A stretch of DNA of 64,000 bases from a virus. Lineage: Duplodnaviria > Heunggongvirae > Uroviricota > Caudoviricetes. Every line of letters begins with the position of its first letter. Positions within the stretch are counted from its first letter, which is position 1. Shown here piece after piece: positions 10,541 through 58,674 of the stretch. Position numbers and translations under genes: made by a program. The notes below the pieces were generated by a model. That model worked only from the letters and a program-made list of their open reading frames with translations. It made no database searches and had not been told where the DNA came from. The stretch spans positions 10,722 through 74,721 of the IMG/VR virus record IMGVR_UViG_3300044451_000174; one strand, given 5' to 3'.

Positions 10541-10545
10541 AACAG

Positions 10546-10926
10546 CTACCTCTTTTTGGCGACCTTCTTGACTGAGTTGGTCGGCTTCTTCCTCGCCTTC
10601 GCGTTCTTGGGCGAGCCGTCCAGTTCGTTGATTGTAGGCCCGACGAGCCGCTTCTTGATCTCTTCTCGCCACCAATTGGCGATTTGTTCGTCGTGTTCGC
10701 TGCCGTCTCCCTCGAACCCGAACCGCACGAGGGAATCGTTGCCGATACCGTACTCGGCCGCGAGGACGCGACAGGTTTTCTTTTTGGTGCGGGCGAGTTG
10801 GCCCATGATGCAGTTCTGGTTCGAGAACATCTTGATCTCGTCCGGCTTGATCTTCCCGGCCCAACCGGGCCAGTGATCGTCCAACAGGTTCGCGCCGGCT
10901 TGAACGTGCTTTTGTGTCGTCTTCAT
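10546..10926 (-). CDS. hypothetical protein with a basic C-terminus (126 aa)
   Basis: Start at MKTTQK, which has an AAGGTG ribosome-binding site. A promoter-motif hairpin lies upstream. Confidence 0.45.
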   Translation of the reverse strand: MKTTQKHVQAGANLLDDHWPGWAGKIKPDEIKMFSNQNCIMGQLARTKKKTCRVLAAEYGIGNDSLVRFGFEGDGSEHDEQIANWWREEIKKRLVGPTINELDGSPKNAKARKKPTNSVKKVAKKR

Positions 10927-38100: not shown

Positions 38101-41100
38101 AGCGGCTGGACTGATCGGCACCGCCTTGTACTACGCCAAGCCACACCTCGACAAACTCGCGGATGCCGAAAAGGACATCAACGCGATGGTCAAGAACATG
38201 TGGAAGGGCGCTAAGGCGTTGGCGAAGTTGTCGGGTCCGCTGCTCGTGTTTGCGGCGGAACTCGCGATCTTCGGCAAGATCGTTCTGGGTGCGTTGGGGC
38301 TGAGTCCGGGCAGGTTGCTCCTGATCGCCGGAACGTGGATCGCGTTGGCTCTCGGTATCGCCGGAATCGCGGAAGCGATTGTCCGGTCTGGGCCGATGTA
38401 CGCACAACTCCCGGTCGCCACGAAGATGATGCACACGCTCCACAAAGAACTGTGGGCCGCTGTAGGTGCGTTCGGACTCGTGACTCTGCCGCTGATCGCG
38501 TTCGCCGCAATCATGGCGTTGTTCGGTTACGTCGTGATCGACAAGTTCGGGTTGACTCCGGGCCGCATGTTCGCCATTGCAGCGACGTGGTTGATCCTCG
38601 CCGTCGCGGTCGGAGCCATCGGGTACGCTCTCACGGCTTCGTTGCCGGGATGGGCGACAATGGGTGCCGGTCTGAGTGCCGTGTGGTCGATCTATCCGAT
38701 GCTGTGGAGTGCGGTGGCGGCGTTCGCGCTAGTCAGCTTGCCGCTCATCGCGTTCGCGGGCCTTCTCGCACTGTTCGGATACGTTGTCATCGACAAGTTC
38801 GGCCTGAGTCCGGGCCGCATGTTCGCCATTGCAGCGACGTGGTTGATCCTCGCCGTCGCGGTCGGAGCCATCGGGTACGCTCTTGCCGCCTCGTTGCCCG
38901 GATGGGTAACGATGGGTGCCGGTCTGTCGGTGATCTGGGCGTTGATGCCGGTGTTGCTAAACGCAGTGGCCGCATTCGCCTTAGTGAGTCTGCCGATCAT
39001 CGCGTTCGCGGCACTTCTTGCAGGGTTCGGGTACATCGTAATTGATCAACTCGGATTGACTCCGGGCCGTATGTTCCAGATTGCAGCGACATGGTTGATC
39101 CTCGCCGTCGCGGTCGGGGCCATCGGTTACGCTCTAACGGCATCGTTGCCCGGATGGGTAACGATGGGTGTCGGTCTGGGTGTGATCTGGTCGCTGCTCC
39201 CCCTGTTGTTCATGGCGGTTGCGGCCTTCGCGCTAGTGAGTTTGCCAATCGTGGCGTTCGCTGCGATTCTGGCCGCGTTCGGGACAATCGTAATTGACGA
39301 GCTTGGGTTGACGCCGAGTCGGATGTTCGACATCGCGGCGACGTGGCTGGTACTGGCAATCGGTATTGGGGCAATCTCCTACGCACTGATTGAGGCGACT
39401 CCGGGCTGGAGCATGTTGGGTATCGCCTACCCGTTCCTGCTTTACGCATACGGCTTGATGTGGTTGGGCGTGGGAGCATTCGCACTGGTAAGCTTGCCGA
39501 TTCTCGCTCTGGCCGAGATCATCGCCGAGTTCGGCGACACGCTTGACGAACTGGGTCTGACCCCGGAACGGATGAAGCAGATCGGCGAGACGTTCGTGAC
39601 GCTGTCTGAGACGATTGGCGAATTGTGCATGTCGATGTTGGGAGCCACCGCGAAATTGGCGGTCCTCGGCGTTCTGAGCATCTTCTCCGTTCTGATGATG
39701 AGCCTCGCGATGTTGGGCGTCGGTGCCTTCGCGGTGCTGGCGATCCCGATTTTGGCTCTTGGCAGTGCGATCTCCAACTTCGGCCGGACGATCATTGACG
39801 ACATGGGCCTGACCCCAGAACGAATGCAAGCCATTCAAGATTCGTTCACCTCGTTGACCGACACGATTAGGAGCCTGTCTTGGAAAATGATTTCGGCAAC
39901 GGCGTCACTATCGTTATTGGGCGTGCTTTTGATATTCTCAACTTTGGCTTCCACGTTTATATGGATGGGCGCGTTGGCATTCCTCGTGATGATGGGGCCG
40001 TTCCAGTTCTTGGCATACATGCTTTCCAAGTTCGCCGAATCAGTTGACATTGAAGGGGTGAAAAAAGCTGGTGAAATTTGCGAGGCGATTGCCAAGACGA
40101 TTAGTACGATTCCGCCAGTCATCAAGTCACTAACCGACGAATTATTACCGTTGATGGAACCGCGTTGGTGGGGTCTTGTTGGGCCAAGCAAGATGGAAAA
40201 AGCTCTTAAGGTAACAACAGGTTTCTTCAGTAAGAACTTTGCAGCAATCTTGAGTTTTATTTCTTACGGCATTATTGATCCAATCTTTGGCATTGGTCCC
40301 GGTGCCGCAGGTGTTAAACTCAATCCTCGCGACATTCAGACGGCCGCGAACGTGATGAAGGGGCTGGCTGATATGCTACCCGCTATTCCACCTGTGATTG
40401 ACGCACTGAATGGCCCAATTGCCGATCTGTCTAAAAAAAGTTGGTTTGGATACGGCAGTAACAAATTAGAAAAAACTCTGAATAAACTAAAAGACGGTTT
40501 CCATTCAAGTTTTGCGGCAATTTTGAATTTCATTTCTTACGGTATTATTGATCCGATATTTGGTATCGGTGCCGGTGCTTTTGGCACTAAACTAAATCCA
40601 CGAGATGTTCAAACCGCCGGTAAGATTATGAGTGGGTTGGCAGAAATGCTACCTGCTATTCCACCTGTGATTGACGCACTGAATGGCCCAATTGCCGATC
40701 TGTCTAAAAAAAGTTGGTTTGGATACGGCAGTAACAAATTAGAAAAAACTCTGAATAAACTAAAAGACGGTTTCCATTCAAGTTTTGCGGCAATTTTGAA
40801 TTTCATTTCTTACGGTATTATTGATCCGATATTTGGTATCGGTGCCGGTGCTTTTGGCACTAAACTAAATCCACGAGATGTTCAAACCGCCGGTAAGATT
40901 ATGAAGGGGCTGGCAGAAATGCTACCTGCTATTCCACCTGTGATTGACGCACTGAATGGCCCAATTGCCGATCTGAGCAGCAAAGGCTGGTTCAGCGGCA
41001 AGAATAAGTTGCAGAAAACGTTAGCCAAGTTGCAACAAGGTTTCCAGCAGAACTTCACGGCGATTTTAAGTTTCATATCACATGGTATTATTGGCCCTAT

Positions 41101-43204
41101 ATTCGGTGCCGGCCAAGCCGAGGGCGAGGGCATTATGTTAAACCCACGCTACATTCAAATGGCTGCAAATGTGATGAAAGGTCTGGCCGATATGCTTCCG
41201 GCCATCGGAACCATGATTGACACTCTCGGCAGTGGAATTCAGAAAATCCTGAAAAGCAGCAAAATGCGGATGAAGATGGACGCAATCGAAACGTTCGCGA
41301 CATGGTTCGCGAACGTAGCCCGCTTGCTGACCGAAGGTATGGTGATTCCGATCAAGACGCAGTTCCCGACCGTGGACGAAGTTCAGGACATGGGCGGAAG
41401 ACTTGAAGGAATGACGCAGATCGTTGCCAAATTGCCGAAGTTCATGGAGGATCTGTACTCCAAGATTAAAGAAGGTTTGGCACTGTTAGATCAAAACAAG
41501 ATCGAGGGCAACGAGGTAACACGATTTACGATATGGTTCTATAACGTTGCCTCGATGTTGAACTTCGGTATTGTGATGCCGATCACGACCGGATTCCCGC
41601 CACAGAAAGAAGCGGACGACGCTATCGCCAAGCTCGACAAGATGACAGAGATCGTATCAAAGTTGCCGTCAATCGTTCAGAGCTTGAGCGAGGCGACGGC
41701 CGGCGCTCGCGAGATGATGAAGAGTTCGGGCATTTGGGGCGCGTACCGCGACATGGACATGTTCATGTGGGAAGCGGGCTTCATCATCCGTCGCGGCGTG
41801 ATGGAGCCGATGCAGACATGGCCGAAAGACAGCGAGATGACCGACGCCGTTGCCCGCATCACCAAGATGGACGAAATGTTCAAGACGATGGCTCAGGCTA
41901 TGGAAAGCATGGCCGCGTCAGCTAAAGCTATGGCTTCTGTTGATCTAAGTCAGTCTATGAACATGGGGAGTTTGGGCAACCCTGAAAATGGCAACTTAGC
42001 CGAGTTCGTGAGTGCGTTCGCGGAACAGAACGCCGAGTCGATGGGCATGAACGATACTAATTCTTTGGTTGATGTGATGGGTCAACAATCTCCACAAATC
42101 ACATCGATGCAAAGTGCTTTGCGAATTGTCGAGAACTACACCCACGACATCAAGGATCTGTTCGAGCGGTCGTCCAGTGTCATCGGTGACATCCAGAAGA
42201 CCAGCGAGTACATGTCGATGTTCGGTGATTTGGACTTCTACGAGAACCAGATCTCCGAGAAGATCGCGCAGAGCAAGCAGTTCGTGCCGACCGTCCAGAG
42301 GATTGCAGAGAACATCGGTAAAGGCTTCGACTTTGCCGGCGGCAAGGCGTTGCTCGAAACCATCGCCGGACAGAAAGTCCGCATGGATGAAATGGCGGCG
42401 GGTCTGAAGGAAACAGAAGACTACACCAAGAAATTGGCGGAAATCTTCACGATGGCGAACAACGCCGTCAACATGATCAAGCAGACCACCAACAACCTGA
42501 CGCAACTCAATGCCATCAAAGACGTTGAGAAAGAAATTACGGCCAAGATCGCGTCGGGCAACAGCTTCATGGTGTCGGTGTTGAAGACGGTCGAGGCGGT
42601 CGCCACCAACTTCGGAACCAACGAAGAGGTCAAGACGACTCTGATGGGTGTGCAGGCCAAGATCAAGGCGGCGGGCGACACGAATCAGGCGTTGACCGAC
42701 TCTTTAAAGTTCATCGAGACGGTTAAACAGTTGCAGAGCAACGTGTTGTCAATCGGCCAAATGGCCAAAGACAAGCCGCTTGGCGGTGGCGTGCCGGGTG
42801 CCGGCGCTCCTGTCAGCATCCCGGCCGCTAAGACCGGATTGAGTACGCCTGAGCCGGTACAGACCGCTTCGACAACGGGCGCGGCCAACTTGGACGTTGA
42901 GAAGACGATCATGAGAGATCAGGCGACTTCTCAGCCGCCGGCCGGTGGCAACAAGAACGCGGTCGATTTCAGCAACTTGCAGAAGGCGATTGAAGAGAAC
43001 AAGATGACCAACGACGAGATCCTCAGCGTGCTTCAGGCCATGTTGCGGCTGATGACGCCGCGTTCTGGAAGCAACACGGCACCGGGCGGGGACACGAATA
43101 CATATTCGCGTCCCGACAAGCCGGCTGCTTACTACCGCGCACCCGTTGGCGACTTCAACAGTTCCGCAGGTAAGGGTGCCACCAACATGGTAAGGACCAG
43201 ATAA
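35132..43204 (+). CDS. tail tape measure protein (TMP), 2690 aa, with internal tandem repeats and multiple transmembrane hairpins
   Basis: Giant ORF directly upstream of the baseplate genes. It has alpha-helical low-complexity regions, a Gly14 run, 252-bp repeats that encode paired transmembrane helices, and 273-bp repeats. Confidence 0.7.
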   Translation: MADPQLHVVVDAIGRNVNMNIDPNQWDELKSSITAGMKSVVGEVASVISQKTSSQCKSIEAALNEMSSSFAEEISGLKRVMNELGQKIDNIGKGTGTPTLGGDVSGSLGVIQTNTQAVSDYVTGEFKTAFAGQASDIRAMKDMASTPGKFFTHDQETHRLLGDLKAAIEACCPGSSIVDKTPSVAPSPTERAAPSAAPSGGGGGGGGGGGGGGPSPMDRARAFEAAMNAATTSNEGMNDSLTRGRRAYRQHREDMMATDDALEGFIGHVADLQEAFFVFSKDMSFLKDTFLGTFKSMFKEAVHEEVKFIKETRAAINETQGLTAETRGLQDAMTDIGKTAKTTGVGRSEFQASYLKALKSGIKDQKIAMAVTTAQLNTEKQLGLEAGELTEEFIKWNNQYNMSTMQIAEMGRGMRDIARYTGLTGKELANAVKQGDNFVEVLRNAAMLSASAAKNVMEIAANAQKMGVTKQIEPLIKAMASTNNLFREASSETRAFLFQAAAQVGRTGDLMKGTILKTKGGIKDMEKGMEMMLKKFGVQSVEAIDNLSDEAKMKLNLQLKAAYGLELGELQQSLKALKESSKTLADRLDDIRKKQQGNLTLEEKLALKEEERRLKTSKSFEMLTSLDEAAKGAKDMNAALSKFGERRKDFEGDLKAMGKSWGSNAGAARDAINEALKGVNESLKASGKSELSIDSSEIEKALKDPAAFRELSAKLTKAEQEAATAQKAALDPMSKIEQGVRELNDTMRNFTSSFLSSYMNLTGVLGVLAPLLGMMAAQQALSIARWRADKDFGVMGVLKKGLGKIFGYGGKKKGGAGDVAPGAAAGSGVDAGKGVEALAKDGLGGVSHVEDDTVAGLLRQLLHCLCSPKANGIENDEFKNIGKKNKANAAQIEQGAVAKAEKKAGGAAAKEKSKASAGGDDTKSILDKIEKLKGDGPRIAKAAGIIAALTIGIVLLGAVLIKLANMLFSKLKLDIKTVIETAAIIGVIMGAAGLIGTALYYAKPHLDKLADAEKDINAMVKNMWKGAKALAKLSGPLLVFAAELAIFGKIVLGALGLSPGRLLLIAGTWIALALGIAGIAEAIVRSGPMYAQLPVATKMMHTLHKELWAAVGAFGLVTLPLIAFAAIMALFGYVVIDKFGLTPGRMFAIAATWLILAVAVGAIGYALTASLPGWATMGAGLSAVWSIYPMLWSAVAAFALVSLPLIAFAGLLALFGYVVIDKFGLSPGRMFAIAATWLILAVAVGAIGYALAASLPGWVTMGAGLSVIWALMPVLLNAVAAFALVSLPIIAFAALLAGFGYIVIDQLGLTPGRMFQIAATWLILAVAVGAIGYALTASLPGWVTMGVGLGVIWSLLPLLFMAVAAFALVSLPIVAFAAILAAFGTIVIDELGLTPSRMFDIAATWLVLAIGIGAISYALIEATPGWSMLGIAYPFLLYAYGLMWLGVGAFALVSLPILALAEIIAEFGDTLDELGLTPERMKQIGETFVTLSETIGELCMSMLGATAKLAVLGVLSIFSVLMMSLAMLGVGAFAVLAIPILALGSAISNFGRTIIDDMGLTPERMQAIQDSFTSLTDTIRSLSWKMISATASLSLLGVLLIFSTLASTFIWMGALAFLVMMGPFQFLAYMLSKFAESVDIEGVKKAGEICEAIAKTISTIPPVIKSLTDELLPLMEPRWWGLVGPSKMEKALKVTTGFFSKNFAAILSFISYGIIDPIFGIGPGAAGVKLNPRDIQTAANVMKGLADMLPAIPPVIDALNGPIADLSKKSWFGYGSNKLEKTLNKLKDGFHSSFAAILNFISYGIIDPIFGIGAGAFGTKLNPRDVQTAGKIMSGLAEMLPAIPPVIDALNGPIADLSKKSWFGYGSNKLEKTLNKLKDGFHSSFAAILNFISYGIIDPIFGIGAGAFGTKLNPRDVQTAGKIMKGLAEMLPAIPPVIDALNGPIADLSSKGWFSGKNKLQKTLAKLQQGFQQNFTAILSFISHGIIGPIFGAGQAEGEGIMLNPRYIQMAANVMKGLADMLPAIGTMIDTLGSGIQKILKSSKMRMKMDAIETFATWFANVARLLTEGMVIPIKTQFPTVDEVQDMGGRLEGMTQIVAKLPKFMEDLYSKIKEGLALLDQNKIEGNEVTRFTIWFYNVASMLNFGIVMPITTGFPPQKEADDAIAKLDKMTEIVSKLPSIVQSLSEATAGAREMMKSSGIWGAYRDMDMFMWEAGFIIRRGVMEPMQTWPKDSEMTDAVARITKMDEMFKTMAQAMESMAASAKAMASVDLSQSMNMGSLGNPENGNLAEFVSAFAEQNAESMGMNDTNSLVDVMGQQSPQITSMQSALRIVENYTHDIKDLFERSSSVIGDIQKTSEYMSMFGDLDFYENQISEKIAQSKQFVPTVQRIAENIGKGFDFAGGKALLETIAGQKVRMDEMAAGLKETEDYTKKLAEIFTMANNAVNMIKQTTNNLTQLNAIKDVEKEITAKIASGNSFMVSVLKTVEAVATNFGTNEEVKTTLMGVQAKIKAAGDTNQALTDSLKFIETVKQLQSNVLSIGQMAKDKPLGGGVPGAGAPVSIPAAKTGLSTPEPVQTASTTGAANLDVEKTIMRDQATSQPPAGGNKNAVDFSNLQKAIEENKMTNDEILSVLQAMLRLMTPRSGSNTAPGGDTNTYSRPDKPAAYYRAPVGDFNSSAGKGATNMVRTR
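38450..39960 (+). repeat. about six tandem 252-bp (84-aa) repeats inside the TMP gene encoding paired transmembrane helices
   Basis: Near-identical stretches such as ccgggccgcatgttcgccattgcagcgacgtggttgatcctcgccgtcgcggtcggagccatcgggtacgct recur at 252-bp spacing. The peptide repeat is FALVSLPLIAFA...GLTPGRMF..IAATWLILAVAVGAIGYAL. Confidence 0.7.
40230..41050 (+). repeat. three tandem 273-bp (91-aa) near-identical repeats inside the TMP gene, AT-richer than their surroundings
   Basis: Antisense ORFs at 40336, 40609 and 40882 are spaced exactly 273 bp apart. The peptide repeat ILNFISYGIIDPIFGIGAGAFGTKLNPRDVQTAGKIM..LPAIPPVIDALNGPIADLSKKSWFGYGSNKLEKTLNKLKDGFHSSFAA occurs three times. Confidence 0.75.
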
Positions 43205-43743
43205 TGGCTAGAGCTACGGAAAAAGGCTCGTGCAGACTGAAACCTATCAGGAATTGTTACATCACAATTCCCGGCTACGGCCCGATCTTCATGAACAACT
43301 TGCCCGAACTGAGCGACGGCAAGAGCGCCAGTTATCCTGACACGACGATCATTGGTCGTTCGTTCCCGATCAAGGCGTTCAGCCACTCGGAAAACAGGTC
43401 GATCAGTTGGGCGATGCACTTGTTCGTCGTGTCGAAGCAGGACATCAACGACAACTTGATCTTGATGAGGAAGCTGGAGTCCTGTGTCTATCCGAGGAAC
43501 ACGGGACCGGGTCCGTATGCGCCGCCGCTGATCTGTCAGTTGAAGTGCGGGGAGCTTCTGAGTGTGGGGAACCAGCCTTTGAACGCGGTTCTGAAAAGTT
43601 ACAGTGTGAAATTCCCGACCGACGTGGCGTGGGATGAAGACAAGCTTACTCCATTTAAGATGGACATCGATCTCAGCTTCGAGGTCGTTTATAGCAGCAA
43701 CAATTTGCCTGGGGCCGAAAGAATTGTCAACCTGGGCATGTAA
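43204..43743 (+). CDS. putative tail protein in the gpU or tube-initiator position (179 aa)
   Basis: Sits between the TMP gene and the LysM protein gene. ATGA-type overlap with the TMP gene. No diagnostic motif. Confidence 0.35.
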   Translation: MARATEKGSCRLKPIRNCYITIPGYGPIFMNNLPELSDGKSASYPDTTIIGRSFPIKAFSHSENRSISWAMHLFVVSKQDINDNLILMRKLESCVYPRNTGPGPYAPPLICQLKCGELLSVGNQPLNAVLKSYSVKFPTDVAWDEDKLTPFKMDIDLSFEVVYSSNNLPGAERIVNLGM

Positions 43744-43749
43744 ACCGAG

Positions 43750-44076
43750 GTGACAGTGGCCAACTTCTTTGAAGAAACGAACATAAACCCCAGAACTTAC
43801 TTCACTGCCGCGAGTCGGTATTCCGACTCGACCATCTGCTATTACACGGACATGAAACGCCTGTCACTTACGACGTACAAGCGTGGCGTTTCTGCCGTGA
43901 CCCCCAACGACAAATTCATGGTAATCGGGAAGGGCCAAGAGTACCGTCCCGATCTGGTCAGTAGTCGCGTCTACGGTCTGCCCGATTTCTGGTGGCGGAT
44001 CATGGAGGCTAACGGGATCTACGACATTTACGACTTCAAGGCCGGCGTCAACATCCGAATCCCCTCAATGATCTAA
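43750..44076 (+). CDS. LysM-like tail protein (P2 gpX / T4 gp53-like)
   Basis: PDLVSSRVYGLPDFWWRIMEANGIYDIYDFKAGVNIRIP fits a LysM pattern. Confidence 0.55.
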   Translation: MTVANFFEETNINPRTYFTAASRYSDSTICYYTDMKRLSLTTYKRGVSAVTPNDKFMVIGKGQEYRPDLVSSRVYGLPDFWWRIMEANGIYDIYDFKAGVNIRIPSMI

Positions 44077-44085
44077 GGAAAACGT

Positions 44086-45519
44086 ATGTCTTGTAACGCA
44101 ATTTGTTTGCCAGAATATCAATGTGGTGATCTACAAAAAATAAAGCCCAACACTGGCGCGGTTTACGCACCATTTGTGACAATGACATTGGGTGGAACTA
44201 TCACCGTTGGTAACAAATCATTCCCAGGAGAACCCAACACAGCCTGCATCAAATCTTTTGAATTTGGCGGCTCGACTGGTGCTGGCTGTACTGTAGAAAT
44301 AATTGATGAATCTGGTGGTAGTTTTGTGAGATATTTCAATGCAGTTAACAAAAATTTATGTCAAGCCGCCGATGATCACAATATGGAAATTAACTTTGGA
44401 TGGATCTCCAGATCGACAGATGGAAATTTAACCAAAATCGGAATTCCTGAAGGGCCGATATTTTTCATACCCGGAAAAATAGAAAGCGTGTACGAAGGAG
44501 GTGTTATAAAATACACGTTGAATGGAACCGATATGTTAACCCACATGGCAGAAAGTCGCGTGCAAGTACCTGTTGGAACAGAATCAAATAAAGTTAGATT
44601 GATGCCGGCGGTAAGAAAAATGGCGTCAAGAAATTGTCCACCACTCAATAACATCAGATATTTAAGACGAAATGGACCAAATCTAACTGAATGGAGATTC
44701 AAAAATAGTGATGGCGGGCCAGAGGGTCCAATGGGAGTTTGGCAGGGAGATCAACAAAATCCTATTTCGGCCATGAGAAAATTTTTCAATTCCTTGACGA
44801 CAGACCGTAATAAAGGATTTTATGCTATTTGGAACTCTGGGTCATCAGTTCCAGAACTTTGGTTCATGGAAGATTCGCGACCATATTGTGACGAAACGTC
44901 TAATGGATTTTTTTGTGCTGGAACTTACATTGTAAACGGAGGAGATTGCAGCCCTGTAATTAGCTTTAACCCAAAAGCAGAATGGCAATATACTGCTGAT
45001 CTTAATTCGGGTGGTAACTTGGGAGGTGCCACATCTGCTAAGAATATAGAACAACGACCGCCAATAGAACAAAGACGAAGCGGGAATTGTAAGGACATAA
45101 CCACTACTCAACGTGGTGCTGGTACTACAACACAATTCGCCGCACCACAAAACGACATCAATTGGCGGTCGCCAGATCAAATTACTCCAAAAATGCAAAA
45201 AGCTATGGCGGAACACGAAACGGCGGCACACTACAAAGAGCTGCAAGCGCCTATGGAAGCCGAGTTAAAAATACATGGCGACACAAGCTTTGTCCATCAA
45301 TCGCGATGGGCCGATGCTGTTGTTTCGATAATCGTAATAAATCCATTTCAAATTTTTTCAGGTGGTTCATACCACGAATGGCTCGCCGGGCCAATGTGTA
45401 ACCCAATTTTTTCAGACAAAGAATGGATGATAAAAGGTGTTAACCATCAAATTTCTGATGGAGCTTATACTACGACCTTAAAAGTACAATGTATGAATGT
45501 AAACAAGACTGAACAATAA
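44086..45519 (+). CDS. putative baseplate hub protein (gpD/gp27-like position), encoded in an AT-rich segment
   Basis: 477-aa ORF between the LysM protein and the gpV-like spike. GC content is visibly lower than in its neighbours. Confidence 0.4.
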   Translation: MSCNAICLPEYQCGDLQKIKPNTGAVYAPFVTMTLGGTITVGNKSFPGEPNTACIKSFEFGGSTGAGCTVEIIDESGGSFVRYFNAVNKNLCQAADDHNMEINFGWISRSTDGNLTKIGIPEGPIFFIPGKIESVYEGGVIKYTLNGTDMLTHMAESRVQVPVGTESNKVRLMPAVRKMASRNCPPLNNIRYLRRNGPNLTEWRFKNSDGGPEGPMGVWQGDQQNPISAMRKFFNSLTTDRNKGFYAIWNSGSSVPELWFMEDSRPYCDETSNGFFCAGTYIVNGGDCSPVISFNPKAEWQYTADLNSGGNLGGATSAKNIEQRPPIEQRRSGNCKDITTTQRGAGTTTQFAAPQNDINWRSPDQITPKMQKAMAEHETAAHYKELQAPMEAELKIHGDTSFVHQSRWADAVVSIIVINPFQIFSGGSYHEWLAGPMCNPIFSDKEWMIKGVNHQISDGAYTTTLKVQCMNVNKTEQ

Positions 45520-47633
45520 TGACAAATTTATCAGACCAAATACGACAACTAGAAACAGAACTAAAAAAAGTTAAAGCTGTTCTTTCTTCAAGTCAATACG
45601 AAATGGCTAAAGTCGCAACTACGACTTTGAACGACCGTACCCACATTGTTTCTCAATCAGAACAAATGTTTGGCATGTACACTGCCCTGTGTGTTGAAAC
45701 CAAAGATGTTTGGAAACAGAACCGCATCCGTTTTTATTGCCCCTTGTTCCAGTCTCCCGACAGCCCGATGAAAAGTCTGCCGTGGGCGTGGCCGATCTCG
45801 CCTATGGGCGGGTTTGATGATTCCGGCTGTTCGTGGGTGCCACCAGCCGGCTCGACCGTCTGTTTGATTTTCGAGGGCGGCGCGAGAAACGCACCTTTCT
45901 ACATTGGCACAACGTGGCATCGTAACCGAGGACCAGAAGGGGCCAATGTATGGACCATTGACATCGCGGAGTACCAGAAGGTGTGGTCGGGTCACCGCAA
46001 GGGCTACCTGTGTGGACCCAACGACGAGAGCCAGTGTTTGCCGCCGTGGAACACCGAATCTTCAAACGGGTTCGACCTTAATAGCATCGTTGACTTCGAT
46101 GCGAACCCGGAAGCCCAAAAGATGTTGACCTACCCGCACATTTACGGGTTCAAGACGCCAGAAAAACACATGCTCAAAATGGTTGACGGCGATGCGTCGT
46201 GTGACCGCCGGTGGAAAAGACTTGAGATACTCTCGTCTTGCGGCAACTGGCTGATCTTCAAAGACGATCACCTGCACTACGCCGGCCAATACGCACACCC
46301 GACCACGGGCGGCGTTGTCAAAACGGGTGACGTGACGTGCATCGAAGGTGCCGCACCCGGCATCGACATTACCAGGGCAATCGGCCTCGGCGATTTCTTG
46401 CCGGACTTAAACCCCGTTGACTCCGGGGCCGATTTCGGCAGTGCGGACGAAGGGTCAGTGGAAGACGACACGCCGAAAGAGGGAGCTAAAATTTCAAACC
46501 CCGCTTGCAGTGCAAAAATTGTTGGCGGTCATCCCGACACACCTTACTTCCCGTCGTGGAAACCGACCAAATATCAAAAACAACAGATAGGCGCGAACCC
46601 TTTTTTCAAACACGAAAACGAGTGCCGACCGTATCGCGGGCCGGGCAACAACCGTAACAACACCGCCATGTTGCCCCAGAGCGGCATCCAGATGATGTCT
46701 ATCAGCGGCCACACATGGGTCATGGACGACTCGGTCGAAGAACCGACTGGCGATTGCGTGTGGGAACGATCACTACGACCGTTCGACTATGGGTGCAACA
46801 ACATTTTCAACGGTTACATGGGACTGTTCAGCAGTTCGGGTCACAAATTCATCATGAGTGACATCGAGCAAGACGAGCCGAACAAAAGGGGCGAAGACAA
46901 TTACATCCGTCTAGAGTCGCAGGCAGGCAACATCATCGAACTCAACGATATGGAGAAGGAGATCGGGATCGCCGGTTTCCGTCGCGGCATCAGCATGCGT
47001 TCGACCAGCAAACACTTGTTCATGATGATCGATGAGGACAACGAGCAAGACTTGATCCCGCGAAGCGATGGTAACCAACCGGTCAACAAGGCGAAGAAAG
47101 CGTTCATCAAGATCCGGTCGGGTTACGGTATCGAGTTCAAGATCGAGGACACCAACTCGCAGGAGAATACGGTTGCCCAGTCCCTGCAAATGTTCTGTCC
47201 GCAGAAGGACAATACCGAGCGTGGCCCGCACATCATGAGGTTCCAAGAGGCTCCGAGTGGTCCGGGTCAAATCATGCTTCGTGCCGGCGGCGACTACATT
47301 ACAATAAGTTACGACGATCACGTCGAGATGGTGGGCGACAAGGAAAAGAATCCAAGTAACAAGATCGGCATCATTTCCAAGAACAAGGTCGTGTCAACGG
47401 AACAGGTTTACATCAACCTCGCCCGCATGCACGTCTTCTTGGCTAAGGAACAGATCCTGTTGTTGGCCGGTCAGGATTGTCCGTCCGAGAACGGCGAGAT
47501 GGCTCCGTGTCCGGCACAGATCCTCGTGTACCACGAGGGCAAGATCAAGATCAGTGACCGCGTCATCGGAAGCTGTTCCCCGAAGGCTCCGTGTGCGTCG
47601 ATCTTCATGATGTCGCCGTTCGTTTCGTGCTAA
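45519..47633 (+). CDS. baseplate central spike protein (P2 gpV / T4 gp5 / VgrG-like), 704 aa
   Basis: WAWPISPMGGFDDSGCSWVPPAGSTVCLIFEGGARNAPFYIGTTW matches the gpV OB-fold signature WA.v..p.aG...G....P..G..V.v.F..GD...P...G. Confidence 0.7.
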   Translation: MTNLSDQIRQLETELKKVKAVLSSSQYEMAKVATTTLNDRTHIVSQSEQMFGMYTALCVETKDVWKQNRIRFYCPLFQSPDSPMKSLPWAWPISPMGGFDDSGCSWVPPAGSTVCLIFEGGARNAPFYIGTTWHRNRGPEGANVWTIDIAEYQKVWSGHRKGYLCGPNDESQCLPPWNTESSNGFDLNSIVDFDANPEAQKMLTYPHIYGFKTPEKHMLKMVDGDASCDRRWKRLEILSSCGNWLIFKDDHLHYAGQYAHPTTGGVVKTGDVTCIEGAAPGIDITRAIGLGDFLPDLNPVDSGADFGSADEGSVEDDTPKEGAKISNPACSAKIVGGHPDTPYFPSWKPTKYQKQQIGANPFFKHENECRPYRGPGNNRNNTAMLPQSGIQMMSISGHTWVMDDSVEEPTGDCVWERSLRPFDYGCNNIFNGYMGLFSSSGHKFIMSDIEQDEPNKRGEDNYIRLESQAGNIIELNDMEKEIGIAGFRRGISMRSTSKHLFMMIDEDNEQDLIPRSDGNQPVNKAKKAFIKIRSGYGIEFKIEDTNSQENTVAQSLQMFCPQKDNTERGPHIMRFQEAPSGPGQIMLRAGGDYITISYDDHVEMVGDKEKNPSNKIGIISKNKVVSTEQVYINLARMHVFLAKEQILLLAGQDCPSENGEMAPCPAQILVYHEGKIKISDRVIGSCSPKAPCASIFMMSPFVSC

Positions 47634-47647
47634 TTCAAAGAGGATAA

Positions 47648-48079
47648 ATGCCGGCAATGAAGTTTTTGGGTGTTCCTTATCCCATTACACCGCACCCGCG
47701 AGGATACTTGAGATCGAGCGGGGGCATCAGTCAGATCAAGTCCGATCTTTTGCAGTTGCTGCTCACCAACCCCGGCGAGAGGGTGATGCTGCCGACTTAC
47801 GGCACGCCCCTCAAGAAGTTCATCTTCGAGCAGAACGACGCGATCTCGGCCGAGAGCGTGCGACAGGCGATCATCAATTCGATCAACCTGTGGGAGCCGA
47901 GAATAACGGTTCAAGAAATCACCGTTAAAAACAGTGCGGACGAAAGTCAATTAAACCCTCAAGATCCCAAAGAAGACTTGGAGAACGTGATGTCTATTAC
48001 GATCAGGTTCTTCGATCCTGAGAACATTCAAGAGGTCGATGCCGTGGTAATCGAACTACCAGTAGGTGGAGTACAATGA
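47648..48079 (+). CDS. baseplate wedge protein gpW / gp25-like
   Basis: LLLTNPGERVMLPTYGTPLKKFIFEQNDAISAESVRQAIINSINLWEPRI aligns with P2 gpW TAPGERVMRPDFGCGL...FEPND.......V..AL..WEPRI. Confidence 0.8.
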   Translation: MPAMKFLGVPYPITPHPRGYLRSSGGISQIKSDLLQLLLTNPGERVMLPTYGTPLKKFIFEQNDAISAESVRQAIINSINLWEPRITVQEITVKNSADESQLNPQDPKEDLENVMSITIRFFDPENIQEVDAVVIELPVGGVQ

Positions 48080-52600: not shown

Positions 52601-52797
52601 TGGCGGGCGTGCCGTTCCAGCGGCTCGACCGGCGGAACTCGGAAGTGATCACCTCCGTCACGGAGACGATGTCGCCGATGGCGATGAGCATGGCAGCCGC
52701 CCCAGAGCCGGGGTTCTCTGACTTTGTGAAACAAGAAGAGAAAATCAACTTCCGCATTGATTACGCGGACGGAACAGTCGAAGAGGGGAGCCTATGA
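49642..52797 (+). CDS. tail protein I-like baseplate protein with long C-terminal extension (1051 aa)
   Basis: LGLLGRMFGLKLRSEDPTRWRKQIKLAVPLYKMKGTRAGLEMAFDLAG matches the gpI family motif around RRGTraGLe. Follows the J gene. Confidence 0.55.
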   Translation: MAEKTIYEVPSVTDTVVIPFLTPDADQCLLQNPYMVNNLTIYYIERDFSGGNVTQFDVETRNQDAERAATEAQNAACLDPTQENILEARKLRAQADSMRVSRPVYYNDAVPVAVIGNSSYPAWLSTDTPNALIENVPLDEEGNTVYGHFQYVWNPVGMREGNYIACWTWTPLAAGETLSQNLSFSLMGNNAITTSIPTHATPPEKYQTLLDTYLPEMYKSTLSEDDVTPSVLTRFNKSVGQGFTVLENLANQILDIMDANSTDEAFLGLLGRMFGLKLRSEDPTRWRKQIKLAVPLYKMKGTRAGLEMAFDLAGMRMTSLVRGWQIISPYTWVETFKAAGGEMEFVLSRVAQPIDSDNFEVSVRKAGNSYYTDYLPSDVSINTSDGVSTLTIENNISLENGDILRVLYQYAAIPNPTQQDIEDYIRLLPLTDQRDETVQDYPPKNWNVRLLEENDPLFSILIPNKHPYHDFLVFGKIRTEFPYSENVYNMDEYNGSIRDSLEPCDMDKDFVDPCSQCLGSKYIIDIEVDRLCDDRVNEAKDILKEFVPFHALPQTINFSGSMEDFVQPPVETIECLIYYRGSETVIAGSDQMVFNRAMIPSGMPLDQILRNTLATSTLVASGTATAYNRQIMLFSPDVPISNTGLSTDPTETVLEIYGPHPHAGNYQVTNAVGHAVEVYGPISPTSPLTEPINQSAFSFSLSNIIYENSDTSIVTDNFYKLKDATWDLAELGVKSQWDVDNGYATTAWTIKMTAYSATPYTIQDIKPEGEIVIAQDPSLPNVNATGVAYSIIRPDASVAHTGTLNLSVELRGLVTVTDGVLTDVRGVMIQPLAGQYFLYYNDTGDQYVVSELVDGETHQFYINGWSGGSVGGKSIALYDRLIDTRYGLLTYQGIGLNTVINYESSLGISNGQNPVLVPLEDSKFKENFIVVINDPVNGADEETFAIADIDGTTITLDGDIHYWTTLGNGGTSVPFEIYNYETLPVTVAGVPFQRLDRRNSEVITSVTETMSPMAMSMAAAPEPGFSDFVKQEEKINFRIDYADGTVEEGSL

Positions 52798-53270
52798 AAA
52801 CCGAAGACCAAGTGCAATGTATCGGTTGGGTCGAAGCCGTCATCGAATACAAAGACGGCCGCAAAGACACTTTGCGGTTCAACAACAGCGTCATGAGGCG
52901 GGGACGGGCGGCTCTGGCCGCAGCCCTGAGCAACTCCCTTAGTGACGGGTTCAATTTCTACGTCAGCCGAATGATTTTCGGCGACGGCGGCACGTCCGGG
53001 GGCGTTCCGAAGTTCGTTGACACGAACAGGAACGGCCTTTACGGTTTGACGCGGGCGAGTAAGCCCGTCGTGGCGAGCGTGGACCCGACGACCCCTAGCA
53101 AAGCCGTGTTTACCAGCGTGTTGACGTTTAACGACGCCAACGGGTACGCCCTGAACGAAATGGCGTTGGTAATGAACAGCGGCGACTTGTACAGTCTGGC
53201 GACGTTCCCAGACCTCAACAAGACTGACGCCATGCAGATCACATGGTCTTGGTCGGTTAATTTTGTCTAA
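52794..53270 (+). CDS. hypothetical tail-associated protein (158 aa)
   Basis: ORF that overlaps the upstream stop. Confidence 0.45.
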   Translation: MKTEDQVQCIGWVEAVIEYKDGRKDTLRFNNSVMRRGRAALAAALSNSLSDGFNFYVSRMIFGDGGTSGGVPKFVDTNRNGLYGLTRASKPVVASVDPTTPSKAVFTSVLTFNDANGYALNEMALVMNSGDLYSLATFPDLNKTDAMQITWSWSVNFV

Positions 53271-53300: not shown

Positions 53301-54320
53301 ATGAAGAATTTATACCCGCAATTGACTACCCGTCAGCATGAGATATTCATAGGAAGTATGCTTGGCGATGGCTGTCTTAGCCGTCAACCTGTTAACTGGA
53401 ATTGGCTGATTCAGCAGAGCTTTGCCGATCATAAAAACTTTCCAAAAGAAAGCTACATGCAGTTTTTTTTAGATGAGCTAGGAGGCTGGTCCAGATGTGC
53501 AAAAATTGTTATGAAGTCTCATCGAGCCAAAATTATCGACGGCAAGATCGGTCGAGTGCAGTGTGAACCATATCCGACTTGGAGATATGAGTCTTGCAAT
53601 CATCTGATTTGGACGGAAATGGGCAAGAAGTGGTATGCCCCTCAGTTGGTGAACGGCAGAATCAGGAAGGTCATTCCTAACGATCTCAAACTGACTCCGC
53701 TATCGATGGCGATATGGTACATGGATGACGGGGTCAATCAAGCTAGAGACGCCCAAGCCAAACTATGCACCAATGGTTTTACCGAAGAAGAGGTTGTTTT
53801 CCTGGCGGAAGTAATGAAACGTGACTTGTCGATCAAGGCTGTCAAGTCGAGAGTCAAAAAAGACCGCAGTCAGTTTTTACTTCGTGTCAACCGTGAAGCG
53901 TATTTTGAATTCATTGACATTATAAGGCCAGAGATCAAGTGGGACTGCTTCGGTTACAAAACGGACACCTCCGGGTACGTCAAGAAAGACAACAAGGGAG
54001 CCAACCACGGAAAGTCTAAATTAAACGACGAGAAATCGCAGGAGATTTTTCGGTTGAGGCAGATAGGTCGTTCTCGTAAAGAAGTCGCGGCCATATTTGG
54101 TGTGACCGAAGCGTGTGTGACACGCATCGCTTCTGGGCAAGGATGGAAACATCTGGGAAACCCGATGGTGCGACAACACAAAAAAATGACCGCAGAAGAC
54201 AGAACGCAAGCATTAAGGCTTCTGGCAGAAGGTAAGGATCAAGAAGAGGTCGCAAGCATTATCGGCACATCACAGTCGAGCATCAGTAGATTGTTAAACA
54301 AAAAAACGTTCGCAAAATAG
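53301..54320 (+). CDS. LAGLIDADG homing endonuclease with C-terminal helix-turn-helix DNA-binding domain
   Basis: Two LAGLIDADG motifs, IFIGSMLGDGCLS and LSMAIWYMDDGVN. The C-terminal EIFRLRQIGRSRKEVAAIFGVTEACVTRIASG is helix-turn-helix-like. A TATAAT lies at 53289-53294. The region is low in GC. Confidence 0.75.
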   Translation: MKNLYPQLTTRQHEIFIGSMLGDGCLSRQPVNWNWLIQQSFADHKNFPKESYMQFFLDELGGWSRCAKIVMKSHRAKIIDGKIGRVQCEPYPTWRYESCNHLIWTEMGKKWYAPQLVNGRIRKVIPNDLKLTPLSMAIWYMDDGVNQARDAQAKLCTNGFTEEEVVFLAEVMKRDLSIKAVKSRVKKDRSQFLLRVNREAYFEFIDIIRPEIKWDCFGYKTDTSGYVKKDNKGANHGKSKLNDEKSQEIFRLRQIGRSRKEVAAIFGVTEACVTRIASGQGWKHLGNPMVRQHKKMTAEDRTQALRLLAEGKDQEEVASIIGTSQSSISRLLNKKTFAK

Positions 54321-54331
54321 GTGAACTTCGT

Positions 54332-54529
54332 ATGACATGCAAGAAAGAGAATGAAAATAATTTGCCGGTCAACGCGGATGTCATATACATCCCCAGTGTG
54401 ATCGGGCAAATAAACAAAATTACATTCCCCAGTATCATTGTCTGTGAAGTAAACGTGCCTAGTGTGATCGTAATGGACGAGCTTGACATCCCAAGTATCA
54501 TTACGGTCGATTGGGCTACAGGAGCATAA
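54332..54529 (+). CDS. small protein made of about 11-residue IPSxI repeats (65 aa)
   Basis: YIPSVIGQINKIT, FPSIIVCEVNV, PSVIVMDELDI, PSIITVDW. The same repeat type occurs at the C-terminus of the gene beginning at 63011. Confidence 0.4.
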   Translation: MTCKKENENNLPVNADVIYIPSVIGQINKITFPSIIVCEVNVPSVIVMDELDIPSIITVDWATGA

Positions 54530-54930
54530 TGAACGATTGGTTGAAGCGCAGCTATGCAAAGCAGAAAAGGCAAGCCGACAGACGTACTCTCGAAGGTATC
54601 GATGAGATCGTCAACAAATGGAAAAAAGCCGAAGACAAAAAAGAGTGGGGCGACAAGCTCGCGGTGATTTTGACGATCATGGCTCGCAACGTTATTGAGT
54701 TTGCGAAGCCGGACCTTCCTCTGGAAGAAAAGATCGCAAATCATCGCGAAATAATGAAAAGAGCGGCTAGTTCGCTCCCCTGCATAGACACGACCAGACA
54801 CCGGGCTTTCACTTACCTGATGACCAAAATGTTGTGCGTGTTGCGTCAGAACACGATGACGAGAGAAGAACTACTGGAAGCACACAAGGAGTATCGTGAG
54901 TACCTTGCAAGTAAGCACCCTAGAGCTTGA
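54529..54930 (+). CDS. hypothetical protein (133 aa)
   Basis: Start at MNDWLKRS with TAATG overlap. The longer ORF begins at 54511. Confidence 0.4.
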   Translation: MNDWLKRSYAKQKRQADRRTLEGIDEIVNKWKKAEDKKEWGDKLAVILTIMARNVIEFAKPDLPLEEKIANHREIMKRAASSLPCIDTTRHRAFTYLMTKMLCVLRQNTMTREELLEAHKEYREYLASKHPRA

Positions 54931-55174
54931 AGAAAACGGCAAACCGAAGCGGTATCTGGTCTTCGACAACGAAGCCTTCGACTACGAACTGAGTGAATCG
55001 GACCTCTCCCGCGCGATCATGTACTGTGGCGACGACCCACAGGCCAAGAAGACGCTGCACGGCGAGATCCAAAAGCACTTCCTCGACTGTCTCGAAGAGT
55101 TCCTCGGTTTCCCCGTGACACTGAGTGAGCTTGTGGCTGCGATCCGCGAAGGCAAACTGGAGAAGAAGCAATGA
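54896..55174 (+). CDS. hypothetical protein (92 aa)
   Basis: ORF. Confidence 0.4.
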   Translation: MSTLQVSTLELEENGKPKRYLVFDNEAFDYELSESDLSRAIMYCGDDPQAKKTLHGEIQKHFLDCLEEFLGFPVTLSELVAAIREGKLEKKQ

Positions 55175-55683
55175 ATTTCGTAGAAGAAACCGATCTGCGG
55201 TTCGCGTTGATGCCATCGACAATTGAGAACGCCGGCATGGGGTGTTTCGCCGCCGTGGATCTGAAGAAGGGCGACTACATCGAGGTGATCGGCGTCTACG
55301 TCAAGAAAGGCGGCATCGCCGACAAGTGTACCGCCTACGCGACCAGATACAAGTTCAACGGTCACGACAACCAAGAGGCCAACATCGTGCCGATGGGCTA
55401 CGGCGGGATGATAAATCACACCCCGGACACCGCGAAACAGAATGTCAAACTCGAATTCGCTCGCGGGCTGGCACGGAGAAGCAACGACGCGGGACAAGTG
55501 ATTTACAGGTTCACGAGGGACATCCCGGCCGGCGAAGAACTTCTTGGGTACTACGGGGATCACAAGGAGGCAGAGCTTCAGTGGATGAACAAAGGGGCGA
55601 GCTACCACGACCGCGAGGGCGGGGCGTGGAAAGAGTTCATCGAACTCGATTATTACAACCTCGGTCTGCTCGCCAAAATCTGA
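55171..55683 (+). CDS. SET-domain protein (putative lysine methyltransferase)
   Basis: ENAGMGCFAAVDLKKGDYIEVIGVYV matches the GxG N-SET motif. GMINHTPDTAKQN matches NHS..PN. FTRDIPAGEELLGYYGD matches RDI.aGEELt.dY. Confidence 0.65.
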   Translation: MNFVEETDLRFALMPSTIENAGMGCFAAVDLKKGDYIEVIGVYVKKGGIADKCTAYATRYKFNGHDNQEANIVPMGYGGMINHTPDTAKQNVKLEFARGLARRSNDAGQVIYRFTRDIPAGEELLGYYGDHKEAELQWMNKGASYHDREGGAWKEFIELDYYNLGLLAKI

Positions 55684-55720: not shown

Positions 55721-56497
55721 GTGCCACAGATTGACCTGATTCCAGTACCGCAGTATCAAGCTCTCCAGCCGTACCACGTCGATTTCGACAACCTGCCGCT
55801 GAAGGCGTTGATCACGCGGATGCAGTTGATCAACAGTGCCGTTGACATCAACTCCGACATTCTCCGACAAGCGGTCGGAAGTCAGGGTACGGTCAGCGCA
55901 CGCCTCGGCCAGAGCTTGAACGACGACGGCAGCTTGAGGGTTTCGGCGGTTGACGGCACGCTCCACAACATCGGCGCTCACGCCGATGGGACTTACGAAT
56001 CCGTGGCATACGTCCGCATGAAGCTGGATGAGCGTGAGAAATTGGCGTTGATCGCTGACGGGGCGACCAACATGACGCTAGAATTCAACACGCCGTCCGT
56101 CATTACCAGTTTTGACACCGGGCCGGTGGAATTCATCCCGTCTGACGGGGTGACGTGGAACACGGTCGCGCCGAACAAGGTTCAGGCCAACCTGACGTTC
56201 CCGATCTCTTCGGCACACAAACATTACTACGGGATCACCCCGCAGTACGACGGAACGCCCGACTTCCAGCACTATAAGATCGGCTACCCGAACTACATCG
56301 CAGGCAGTCTGCGTGTGGCGATCAACGGTGTCAGGATTTTTGACGACGGCGATGTGTACGTCCCAGGCTCTACGGTGTCCGAAGCGTGGACACTTCAGGG
56401 GTTCACCGGGGACGAAACGACCGGCAAGTTTGTACTCATGACGCCGCTGACTCTGGACGATGTGATCCGGGTCGATTTCGACGTTGCCCTCACCTGA
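55721..56497 (+). CDS. hypothetical protein (258 aa)
   Basis: ORF. Confidence 0.5.
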   Translation: MPQIDLIPVPQYQALQPYHVDFDNLPLKALITRMQLINSAVDINSDILRQAVGSQGTVSARLGQSLNDDGSLRVSAVDGTLHNIGAHADGTYESVAYVRMKLDEREKLALIADGATNMTLEFNTPSVITSFDTGPVEFIPSDGVTWNTVAPNKVQANLTFPISSAHKHYYGITPQYDGTPDFQHYKIGYPNYIAGSLRVAINGVRIFDDGDVYVPGSTVSEAWTLQGFTGDETTGKFVLMTPLTLDDVIRVDFDVALT

Positions 56498-57072: not shown

Positions 57073-57531
57073 ATGCTCACGTTCACCCAGTGGGTCGAAA
57101 CGACCCGTGTCACGATCTATACCAGCCCCCAGTCGAAAGGCGCTATGGTGGACGACACGTTCGCCGACGAGCCTGTTCAAATGCTGGACATCGACAGCAT
57201 CATAAACTACGAGCGGGCCTCCAAAATGGACCTCCCGGCCAGCCGGGAAAACATGCAGAAGATCCTTGCTGGCATCAAGGCCGGCGAGAAGATGCCGCCG
57301 GTTTACGTCCGCGAAGTGAAACTGAAGGGGAAGTCAAATCCGAGGTGGGACGGGAACAAAATGCTGTCGGTCGGAGGGGTTCCGAACTCGCGTTTCAAAT
57401 ATCAGATCATTGACGGGCATCACAGGTACTGGGCGTACAAAAAGGCGGGCGTCAAAACAATACCCGCCATCGTCGTCTCGCCAGAAGACATCCAGAAGAA
57501 GAGGCTCTGGACGCCCGAAGACGAATACTAG
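57073..57531 (+). CDS. ParB-like nuclease domain protein
   Basis: YQIIDGHHRYWAYKKAGVKTIPAIVV is the ParB/Srx DGHHR signature. Confidence 0.7.
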   Translation: MLTFTQWVETTRVTIYTSPQSKGAMVDDTFADEPVQMLDIDSIINYERASKMDLPASRENMQKILAGIKAGEKMPPVYVREVKLKGKSNPRWDGNKMLSVGGVPNSRFKYQIIDGHHRYWAYKKAGVKTIPAIVVSPEDIQKKRLWTPEDEY

Positions 57532-58155: not shown

Positions 58156-58674
58156 TCAGAGTAAGTTGCAGATGAAGTCCCAACGGTAGTTGTACTTCAT
58201 CTCGCCGTTATGAACTTTGTCGAGGTACTGGTAGAGTTCGTCCCAACTCCCGAACATCTGATCGTCGGGGATGAACCCAAAGTACCACAGAGGATTATAC
58301 TCTTTGCCTTGCGGACAGACGAGCAGCACGGGGTTTTTGAGTAGATTGGCGAGGAAGATCTCGTGGTGGCTGCCCGTGGTCGGAACCCCGAACGGCAGGT
58401 AGGCGATGACGAGGTCAGACCGCTGGACCACTTGAAGGTCTTTGCGAACGAACTTACGCGCGATCTTCGCCATCGTCGCGTAGTCTTTTTCGGTACGGGC
58501 CTTCTTCAAGTCGTCGGCCCACTGTTGTTTGGGGTCGGCGTGAGGGTCGAAGACGTTCATCCCGTAGCGTTCGGTGAGCGTTTTGATGACTTCGGGACGC
58601 CAGTTTGCTTTGGCGGAACACTGTTCGATTGGACCACTCAAATATGCCAGTTGACCGTTAAGGAAATTAGACAT
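58156..58674 (-). CDS. nucleoside 2-deoxyribosyltransferase-like protein (dNMP N-glycosidase family)
   Basis: AYLSGPIE at the N-terminus and FGVPTTGSHHEIFLANLLKNPVLLV fit the nucleoside deoxyribosyltransferase-fold motifs, including the catalytic Glu region. Confidence 0.45.
   Translation of the reverse strand: MSNFLNGQLAYLSGPIEQCSAKANWRPEVIKTLTERYGMNVFDPHADPKQQWADDLKKARTEKDYATMAKIARKFVRKDLQVVQRSDLVIAYLPFGVPTTGSHHEIFLANLLKNPVLLVCPQGKEYNPLWYFGFIPDDQMFGSWDELYQYLDKVHNGEMKYNYRWDFICNLL

Follow-up and report, generated by a model that had tools for sequence, protein, structure and literature searches.

An overlapping gene pair of very large bacteriophages as a candidate two-subunit SET-domain methyltransferase

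What might a bacteriophage do with a SET domain? Lysine methylation by these enzymes stands at the core of chromatin biology in eukaryotes, and we know of almost no role for it in the biology of phages. This question is raised by a 64,000-nucleotide stretch of viral DNA (Caudoviricetes; positions 10,722 to 74,721 of IMG/VR record IMGVR_UViG_3300044451_000174), hereafter called the window, in which an initial annotation had placed a phage-encoded SET-domain methyltransferase at 55171-55683. The open reading frame (ORF) is as that annotation described it: it runs on the + strand from an ATG at 55171 to a TGA at 55681-55683, and its product has 170 amino acids. Missed, however, was the most informative feature of the locus, a translationally coupled gene immediately upstream at 54896-55174. 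The domain call is ordinary, while the two-gene module amounts to a clean, directly testable hypothesis. The reading we favor, with some reserve, is that the two genes specify an accessory two-subunit protein-lysine methyltransferase dependent on S-adenosylmethionine (SAM), carried by a lineage of very large phages.

The prediction that 55171-55683 (+) encodes a SET-domain methyltransferase, and thus a putative catalytic subunit, is supported by a Pfam match, conserved cofactor and catalytic motifs, predicted fold, 50 distinct homologues, and tail genes in the neighborhood. The Pfam SET profile (PF00856) matched the protein with 31 bits (E-value 3.6e-7) against a gathering cut-off of 22.4, the match spanning profile positions 1-105 of 105 and residues 22-129 of the protein. 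The three motifs on which the initial annotation had relied were located, one of them in modified form. The GxG SAM-binding motif lies within N20-A21-G22-M23-G24 (codons at 55228-55242, +), where G22-M23-G24 sits inside NAGMGCFA and aligns with GGYG of vSET, the SET protein of a chlorella virus. An NH(S/T)..PN-like motif had also been proposed. Its first half is present as N82-H83-T84 (codons at 55414-55422, +), which sits inside GMINHTPDTAKQN and aligns with NHS of vSET and of the Plasmodium minimal SET PFL0690c; its second half is not canonical, as PDTAKQN comes next and the residues after NH read TPDTAKQN in place of the pattern in NHSCxPN. The third motif, RDIPAGEELLGYYG, occupies residues 116-129 (R116-DIPAGEELLGYYG-129) and includes the C-terminal SET motif E122-E-L-L-G126-Y-Y128-G129 (codons at 55534-55557, +) with the catalytic Tyr. 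This Y128 aligns with the Tyr of EELLYDYGD in SETD8 and with that of ISYGD in vSET (chain residue 105).

Searching the PDB with the single SET sequence returned weak matches to SETD8 only, with RDIPAGEELLGYYGD aligned to RDIAAGEELLYDYGD. A profile made from an alignment of 21 SET homologues (A1) reached PFL0690c (4.8e-5) and vSET (4.4e-4), and also EZH2 and SETD8. The AlphaFold model built from the same alignment has a mean predicted local distance difference test score (pLDDT) of 72.5, with values of 79-94 in the core blocks and 43-58 in the last 40 residues. A Foldseek search of the PDB with this model gave a fold matching solved SET methyltransferases: the top matches were SET lysine methyltransferases only (MLL4, MLL1/3, SETD8, NSD1, SET7/9, and EZH2), with E-values of ~3e-7 to 2e-6, a probability of 1.00, and template-modeling (TM) scores of 0.5-0.58, and more than 300 solved SET chains were matched at E <= 1e-3. 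PHROGs, PADLOC, and NCBIfam gave no match for the SET protein. One active-site position is atypical. The residue two before the catalytic Tyr is Gly, and it is invariant in the phage SET family; in SETD8, DIM-5, and G9a this position is the Phe/Tyr switch, which sets product multiplicity. A Gly there would presumably open the lysine pocket and be compatible with multiple methylation.

How far does conservation of this protein extend? A word-indexed search found 21 close homologues (166-177 amino acids, 48-100% identity), 20 of which carry a precomputed PF00856 match. IMG/VR added 63 further SET loci at 34-55% identity, and a profile search of 1.84 billion cluster representatives yielded 34 matches at E <= 1e-30 and 711 at E <= 1e-3. 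After de-duplication there were 50 distinct SET sequences, falling into 45, 32, and 9 clusters at 90%, 70%, and 50% identity, respectively, with identities reaching down to 33%. Invariant in all 50 are D8, R10, S16, A21, G24, G41, C53, K61, F62, P74, G76, N82, Y112, E123, G126, and Y128, so that the catalytic Tyr and Asn are both retained throughout; H83 (49/50) and G22 (48/50) are nearly so, and T or S follows H83. Conservation of all classes of SAM-binding and catalytic residues indicates strong purifying selection on them. The family also has a phage-specific C-terminal extension, predicted to be helical, which comprises residues 133-170 in the window (55567-55680, +) and in which F156 (47/50) and Y162 (49/50) stand out. 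Among 50,697 GenBank phage records, tblastn matched only LR756511, an unannotated 595-kb 'uncultured phage', and megablast of the 4-kb region against GenBank phages gave no match. Four much longer proteins (P0103, P0117, P0120, and P0124; 750-889 amino acids) each contain five or six tandem SET-profile matches, with intact, repeated NH and YYG motifs in P0103; their origin may be eukaryotic or giant-viral.

The gene upstream of SET (54896-55174, +) starts with GTG and encodes an acidic protein of 92 amino acids without family assignment, which the Joint Genome Institute (JGI) also calls in an 89-residue version. Its stop codon overlaps the SET start codon in an ATGA junction at 55171-55174 (+), and this 4-nucleotide overlap implies translational coupling. 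In four distant contigs, the short ORFs that precede SET proved homologous, at 29-71% identity (alignment A2). We then scanned six-frame translations of all fetched loci with hidden Markov models (HMMs) of both families. Of 71 SET loci, 70 have the partner upstream of SET and on its strand, and every one of the 50 distinct SET sequences (32 clusters at 70% identity) has it. The distance from partner stop to SET start is -4 in 35/70 loci and between -17 and +8 nucleotides in 66/70. In the one locus without a partner, L070, SET has 133 amino acids and is also without the C-terminal extension. Neighbor-joining trees of the two proteins contain the same major clades and are broadly congruent. In a few loci other genes intervene between partner and SET (L009, 2377-3000; L014, 2474-3004; L017, 2501-3004); they are of two unrelated types and coupled at both ends, and the L014 partner ORF is apparently shortened to 67 amino acids.

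The partner family ranges from 82 to 126 amino acids with a median isoelectric point of 4.8. A profile search found 53 homologues of 67-140 amino acids, many of which share contigs with SET matches. F28 and D29 are invariant and G86 nearly so, and the family is marked by (V/I)xxNE(A/V)FD(W/Y) around F28-D29 and by GxIE at the C-terminus. No Lys is conserved; Lys-rich columns occur only at residues 2-3, and the clade to which the window belongs lacks them. Of the two proteins the partner is the faster-evolving, with a mean identity of 34% versus 47% for SET. AlphaFold predicts three strands followed by three helices (pLDDT of 89.1). Searches of Pfam, PHROGs, PADLOC, NCBIfam, and the PDB by sequence profile gave nothing significant for the partner, and its predicted fold has no PDB match.

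Is the pair then a fixture of the tail genes that surround it? In 37/50 distinct loci it occupies one fixed site of a syntenic tail block and is co-oriented with that block. On the left the site is bordered by a gene for a 158-residue tail-collar-like protein (52794-53270, +; weak match to Pfam Phage_tail_fib, E 3.4e-4), the upstream neighbor in 37/50 loci, and on the right by a gene for a conserved 258-residue protein with no assigned function (55721-56497, +), the downstream neighbor in 34/50. An impression gained from the first three contigs, that the neighborhood is not conserved beyond the pair, was ruled out by this recurrent tail-module site. With the collar-like protein as a marker, IMG/VR held 68 loci with enough downstream DNA for the presence of the pair to be scored (these loci were not de-replicated). 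The order was collar-partner-SET-258-182 in 43/68, where 182 denotes a 182-residue protein, and collar-258-182 in 25/68, the 258-residue protein gene directly following the collar-like gene in these 25 pair-less loci; not one of the 68 had only one gene of the pair. The 25 tail loci without the pair indicate that the cassette is dispensable for tail building, and a role as an essential tail-assembly factor is thereby ruled out. The tail site of LR756511 is empty: its collar-like gene (~560 kb) has the 182-residue homologue as immediate downstream neighbor, and the pair sits ~160 kb away, at ~401 kb, in a replication-type neighborhood. About ten loci of one clade carry the pair among genes for DNA polymerase A, carbamoyltransferase, DEAD-helicase, and AstE/AspA-like proteins. 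The pair is therefore an accessory cassette whose two genes are passed on or relocated together. Strict linkage, joint loss, and joint relocation of SET and partner suggest that the two are probably a two-protein enzyme.

Fusions bear on the same point. When the 150 best SET representatives were screened with the partner HMM, three matched both families. P0091 is a partner-SET fusion (partner at 8-88, SET at 90-240), and P0098 is a fusion in the reverse order (SET at 1-142, partner at 169-228). P0201, a protein of 210 amino acids, joins a partner domain (1-90) to a degenerate SET-like domain in which NH has become RV and the catalytic Tyr is missing; it occurs on two IMG/VR contigs of 436 kb and 55 kb (L032/L033, ~2372-3522), and an intact SET gene directly follows. 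The combination of P0201 with an intact SET hints at SET-SET pairing of the kind found in dimeric vSET.

Where might such a SET gene have come from? A bacterial scan that took one genome per species (185,579 species) found 19 SET loci (L072-L090), mostly in Planctomycetota metagenome-assembled genomes (Gemmataceae, Limnoglobus, Kuenenia, and Singulisphaera included), with a few in Chloroflexota and others. These minimal SETs are the closest cellular relatives of the phage protein, with 32-46% identity over residues ~4-133, and have the motifs D-x-RF, AD-x-CT-x-YA-x-x-YKF, and GFGGMVNHS in common with the phage family. In contrast to the 170-residue phage SET with its extension, they have 121-139 amino acids, are chromosomal, and end without one; they also have a canonical NHS..PN and an EELFFxY with Phe at the switch position, where the phage family has Gly. 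Within 4 kb of the 19 bacterial SETs no partner was found at E <= 1, and there was no conserved neighbor among the 19 loci. The extension is missing from all 19 and from viral locus L070, and all of these are without the partner as well. Because extension and partner co-occur, we infer that the extension is the docking site. Going by the sequences, the phage family looks derived from a bacterial minimal SET that gained extension and partner together. The concentration of relatives in Planctomycetota may hint at the origin of the SET gene or at the hosts of the phages.

In the model that we favor, the SET protein would be an active SAM-dependent protein-lysine methyltransferase and the catalytic subunit of a complex with the acidic partner of ~90 residues, translational coupling providing the two in roughly matched amounts. 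The partner would most likely dock on the phage-specific C-terminal extension and confer specificity, activate the enzyme, or regulate it in some other way; it would not be the substrate. Methylation would fall on some other protein, encoded by either the bacterial host or the phage. The sequences themselves show SET identity, conserved catalytic motifs, and the strict linkage, joint loss, joint relocation, and occasional fusion of the two genes; that the two proteins bind each other, what the extension does, and that methyl groups are transferred to some target are inferred. Several points weigh against this model. No target is singled out among host and phage proteins, nor does anything favor one of the substrates suggested in the initial annotation (host nucleoid, ribosomal, or virion proteins), and the invariant Gly at the Phe/Tyr-switch position is unusual for a SET sequence. 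Confidence in the SET model is only moderate, the C-terminal extension being badly modeled. In 4 loci (three distinct sequences), a third coupled gene, for 167-207 amino acids, separates partner from SET. P0091 and P0098 are single metagenomic predictions, one of them on a contig of 842 bp, and an assembly error of 1 nucleotide at the ATGA junction could produce a partner-SET fusion. Finally, adjacency and co-inheritance are equally expected of an inhibitor or antitoxin.

This last point leads to a toxin-antitoxin (TA)-like or effector-immunity pair, in which SET would methylate a protein that the host cannot do without, and SET would be kept inhibited by the small acidic protein encoded upstream until the inhibitor is released or degraded, or until the enzyme is separated from it, for example by packaging and injection. 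A small gene followed by an enzyme of ~170 residues with a 4-nucleotide overlap is the classic type II layout, and an acidic, faster-evolving partner (34% versus 47% mean identity) in an accessory, relocatable cassette would suit it. We nevertheless hold such a pair to be unlikely, as no defense or TA model was matched, there is no spread in bacterial genomes, and fusions exist; neither the recognizable DNA-binding or neutralizing domain of a type II antitoxin nor the wide, patchy bacterial and plasmid distribution of type II systems was found for this pair. Could the upstream protein instead be what SET methylates? Strict adjacency and coupling would be expected of an enzyme and its substrate, but the partner has no conserved lysine column, its only invariant residues being F28 and D29, and it was rejected as a methyl acceptor on this ground. 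Enzyme-substrate pairs are also rarely fused, and fusions exist here, so that we regard this explanation as extremely improbable.

A further explanation dispenses with the partner altogether: SET would work alone, like dimeric vSET, next to an unrelated co-transcribed ORF, or else would be a non-catalytic binding module. In its favor, vSET and the bacterial minimal SETs function, or at least occur, with no partner. An unrelated neighbor is made less likely, however, by the fact that the two genes appear, vanish, and relocate together, by the agreement of their trees, and by the fusions, and the invariant SAM-binding and catalytic residues are opposed to a non-catalytic module, as is the arrival of the one clearly degenerate copy, P0201, together with an intact SET. 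Both versions are thus very doubtful. The pair might also modify the virion, methylating lysines of tail, baseplate, or fiber proteins (for protease resistance or tuning of adhesion, for example), in which case the partner would be an adaptor to, or a chaperone of, the structural protein that is methylated. We consider this rather improbable, and it is a sub-case of the two-subunit enzyme with a specific target, no true alternative to it. Its fixed, co-oriented site in a conserved baseplate and tail-fiber block (37/50 distinct loci) speaks for it; 25/68 related loci with the same tail genes and no pair, one whole clade with the pair among DNA polymerase, helicase, and metabolic genes, and the non-structural enzymes of the downstream block, such as a nucleoside 2-deoxyribosyltransferase-like protein, speak against it.

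If the two-subunit enzyme is taken as the working model, what could it act on? The presumed late co-orientation with tail genes would fit either virion modification or packaging for injection, and Alt of phage T4 is a precedent for a packaged enzyme that is injected. A tentative extension of the model, possible but short of probable, is that the pair methylates a nucleoid-associated, translation, or defense protein of the host as a takeover or anti-defense step, and it may be delivered by the virion. If true, this would be the first mechanism of phage-host conflict based on SET lysine methylation, and a prokaryotic parallel to the partner-dependent SET complexes of eukaryotes. The system lends itself to experiments: the two genes cover ~0.8 kb, are clearly delimited, and can be cloned and tested directly; the pair occurs widely among phages whose genomes measure 200-600 kb; and sister phages with the same tail module and no cassette are natural controls. 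An active pair would reveal a bacterial or phage protein controlled by lysine methylation during infection, show how a small partner gives a minimal SET its specificity, and show how viruses adapted a minimal SET from bacteria, with its nearest kin in Planctomycetota. A pair that turned out to be inactive or toxic would still define a new family of small proteins, of unrecognized fold, tied to SET enzymes.

The surroundings identify the source of the pair. By its gene content the window is phage DNA with a baseplate and tail module: the neighbors of SET include a 2690-residue ORF, a Phage_base_V hub, gp25-like and gp6-like baseplate wedge proteins, a P2 gpI-like protein of 1051 amino acids, the collar-like protein, and PKD-domain proteins. 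The presence of baseplate and tail genes points to a tailed phage and hence to a prokaryotic host. The source is a very large bacteriophage; an identical SET protein lies on a JGI contig of 475,914 bp, and homologues lie on contigs of 586, 436, 343, 341, and 281 kb and in LR756511 (595 kb). The syntenic order is P2 gpI-like, collar-like, partner, SET, the 258-residue protein, and the 182-residue protein, followed by the nucleoside 2-deoxyribosyltransferase-like gene on the opposite strand, a gene for a 243-residue protein, and the PKD proteins. The deoxyribosyltransferase-like gene (58156-58674, -) lies in the tail-fiber region and holds the same place in 30/50 related loci; the 182- and 243-residue neighbors are conserved and have no assigned function. 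Directly upstream of the partner gene, an ORF for 133-139 amino acids without family assignment (54511-54930, +) gave no Pfam or PHROG match; its homologue abuts the partner in the window and in L001, L004, L006, and L011, which makes 5/50 distinct loci and covers both genomic contexts.

Window G+C is ~56%, with a stretch at 40001-48000 of 0.49-0.51 against ~0.56-0.58 elsewhere, which takes in the last part of the giant ORF together with the region of the baseplate hub. That ORF (35132-43204, +) lies upstream of the baseplate hub and has no convincing Pfam domain; it may encode a giant tape-measure or internal virion protein. No tRNA genes were found in the window, and a scan for promoters and terminators gave no more than is expected from shuffled sequence. 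Between the collar-like gene and the cassette, 53301-54320 (+) encodes a LAGLIDADG_2 homing endonuclease (E 4.7e-21) with two C-terminal helix-turn-helix domains, and the absence of this gene from the syntenic 586-kb contig (L001) suggests that it is probably a recent mobile insertion. A small protein with a ParB N-terminal-like domain (57073-57531, +; E 2.3e-6) is encoded between the 182-residue and deoxyribosyltransferase-like genes, a position that is vacant in L001. On the 281-kb contig (L002), the pair is followed after ~1 kb by a gene for an OrfB_IS605/Cas12f-like TnpB (9439-10602).

How does the pair compare with known systems? The closest viral parallel is vSET (A612L of Paramecium bursaria chlorella virus 1; PDB 1N3J/2G46/3KMT), to which the initial annotation had likened the gene. 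The two are virus-encoded SETs without pre-SET or post-SET zinc clusters, and their GxG, NH, and catalytic-Tyr motifs align (residues 13-130 versus 8-107). This likeness holds at the superfamily level (profile E 4.4e-4) and does not reach further: vSET has 119 amino acids, no C-terminal extension, and no partner gene, whereas the phage SET has 170 amino acids, an obligate partner, a C-terminal extension of ~38 residues, an additional segment inserted ahead of the last strands, and Gly as its switch residue. A minimal SET of ~120 residues has nothing after the catalytic motif, and the phage SET has a conserved 38-residue extension there. vSET is a homodimer and methylates H3K27 of its eukaryotic host; the phage host is prokaryotic and has no histone H3. 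The best structural matches (probability of 1.0, TM scores of 0.53-0.58) are the SET domains of SETD8/KMT5A and MLL (PDB 1ZKK, 4IJ8, 4Z4P, and 7W6L), and the C-terminal motif RDI.AGEELL..YGD is nearly identical between SETD8 and the phage SET. These are eukaryotic histone methyltransferases, however, and their identity to the phage SET is just 19-27%. MLL SET domains need RbBP5-ASH2L partners for full activity; this partner dependence is a functional analogy, as the phage partner is unrelated to WDR5, RbBP5, and ASH2L.

Among prokaryotic proteins, Go1-SET of Methanosarcina mazei, cpnSET/NUE of Chlamydia, and RomA of Legionella act on nucleoid or host chromatin proteins (e.g. PMC3980110, PMC2904774). 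Likened to the phage SET by description, they come from organisms without canonical chromatin and are precedents for non-histone or host-directed targets, but they are cellular proteins, and some are secreted effectors of pathogens of eukaryotes. We know of no coupled small partner for any of the three. In our literature search, neither phage SET enzymes nor operons of SET with a small partner turned up as the subject of a study, and the jumbo-phage survey of Iyer et al. makes no mention of SET. SET-fold proteins of tailed phages have been recorded, the only mentions that we found being names in databases, among them several BFVD/UniProt entries from uncultured Caudovirales phage (A0A6J5L8Y2, A0A6J5P3I3, and A0A6J5PTS6), and a single line that lists ORF62 of Stenotrophomonas phage vB_SmaM_Ps15 as such a protein (PMC9025141); all are uncharacterized. 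These proteins are too divergent for detection by tblastn with the phage SET described here, LR756511 being the sole match in GenBank phages. Phage SET domains are thus already known as annotations, none of which appears to have been studied, and what sets the present family apart is that its SET has an obligate partner of unrecognized fold as well as a C-terminal extension and carries Gly as the switch residue.

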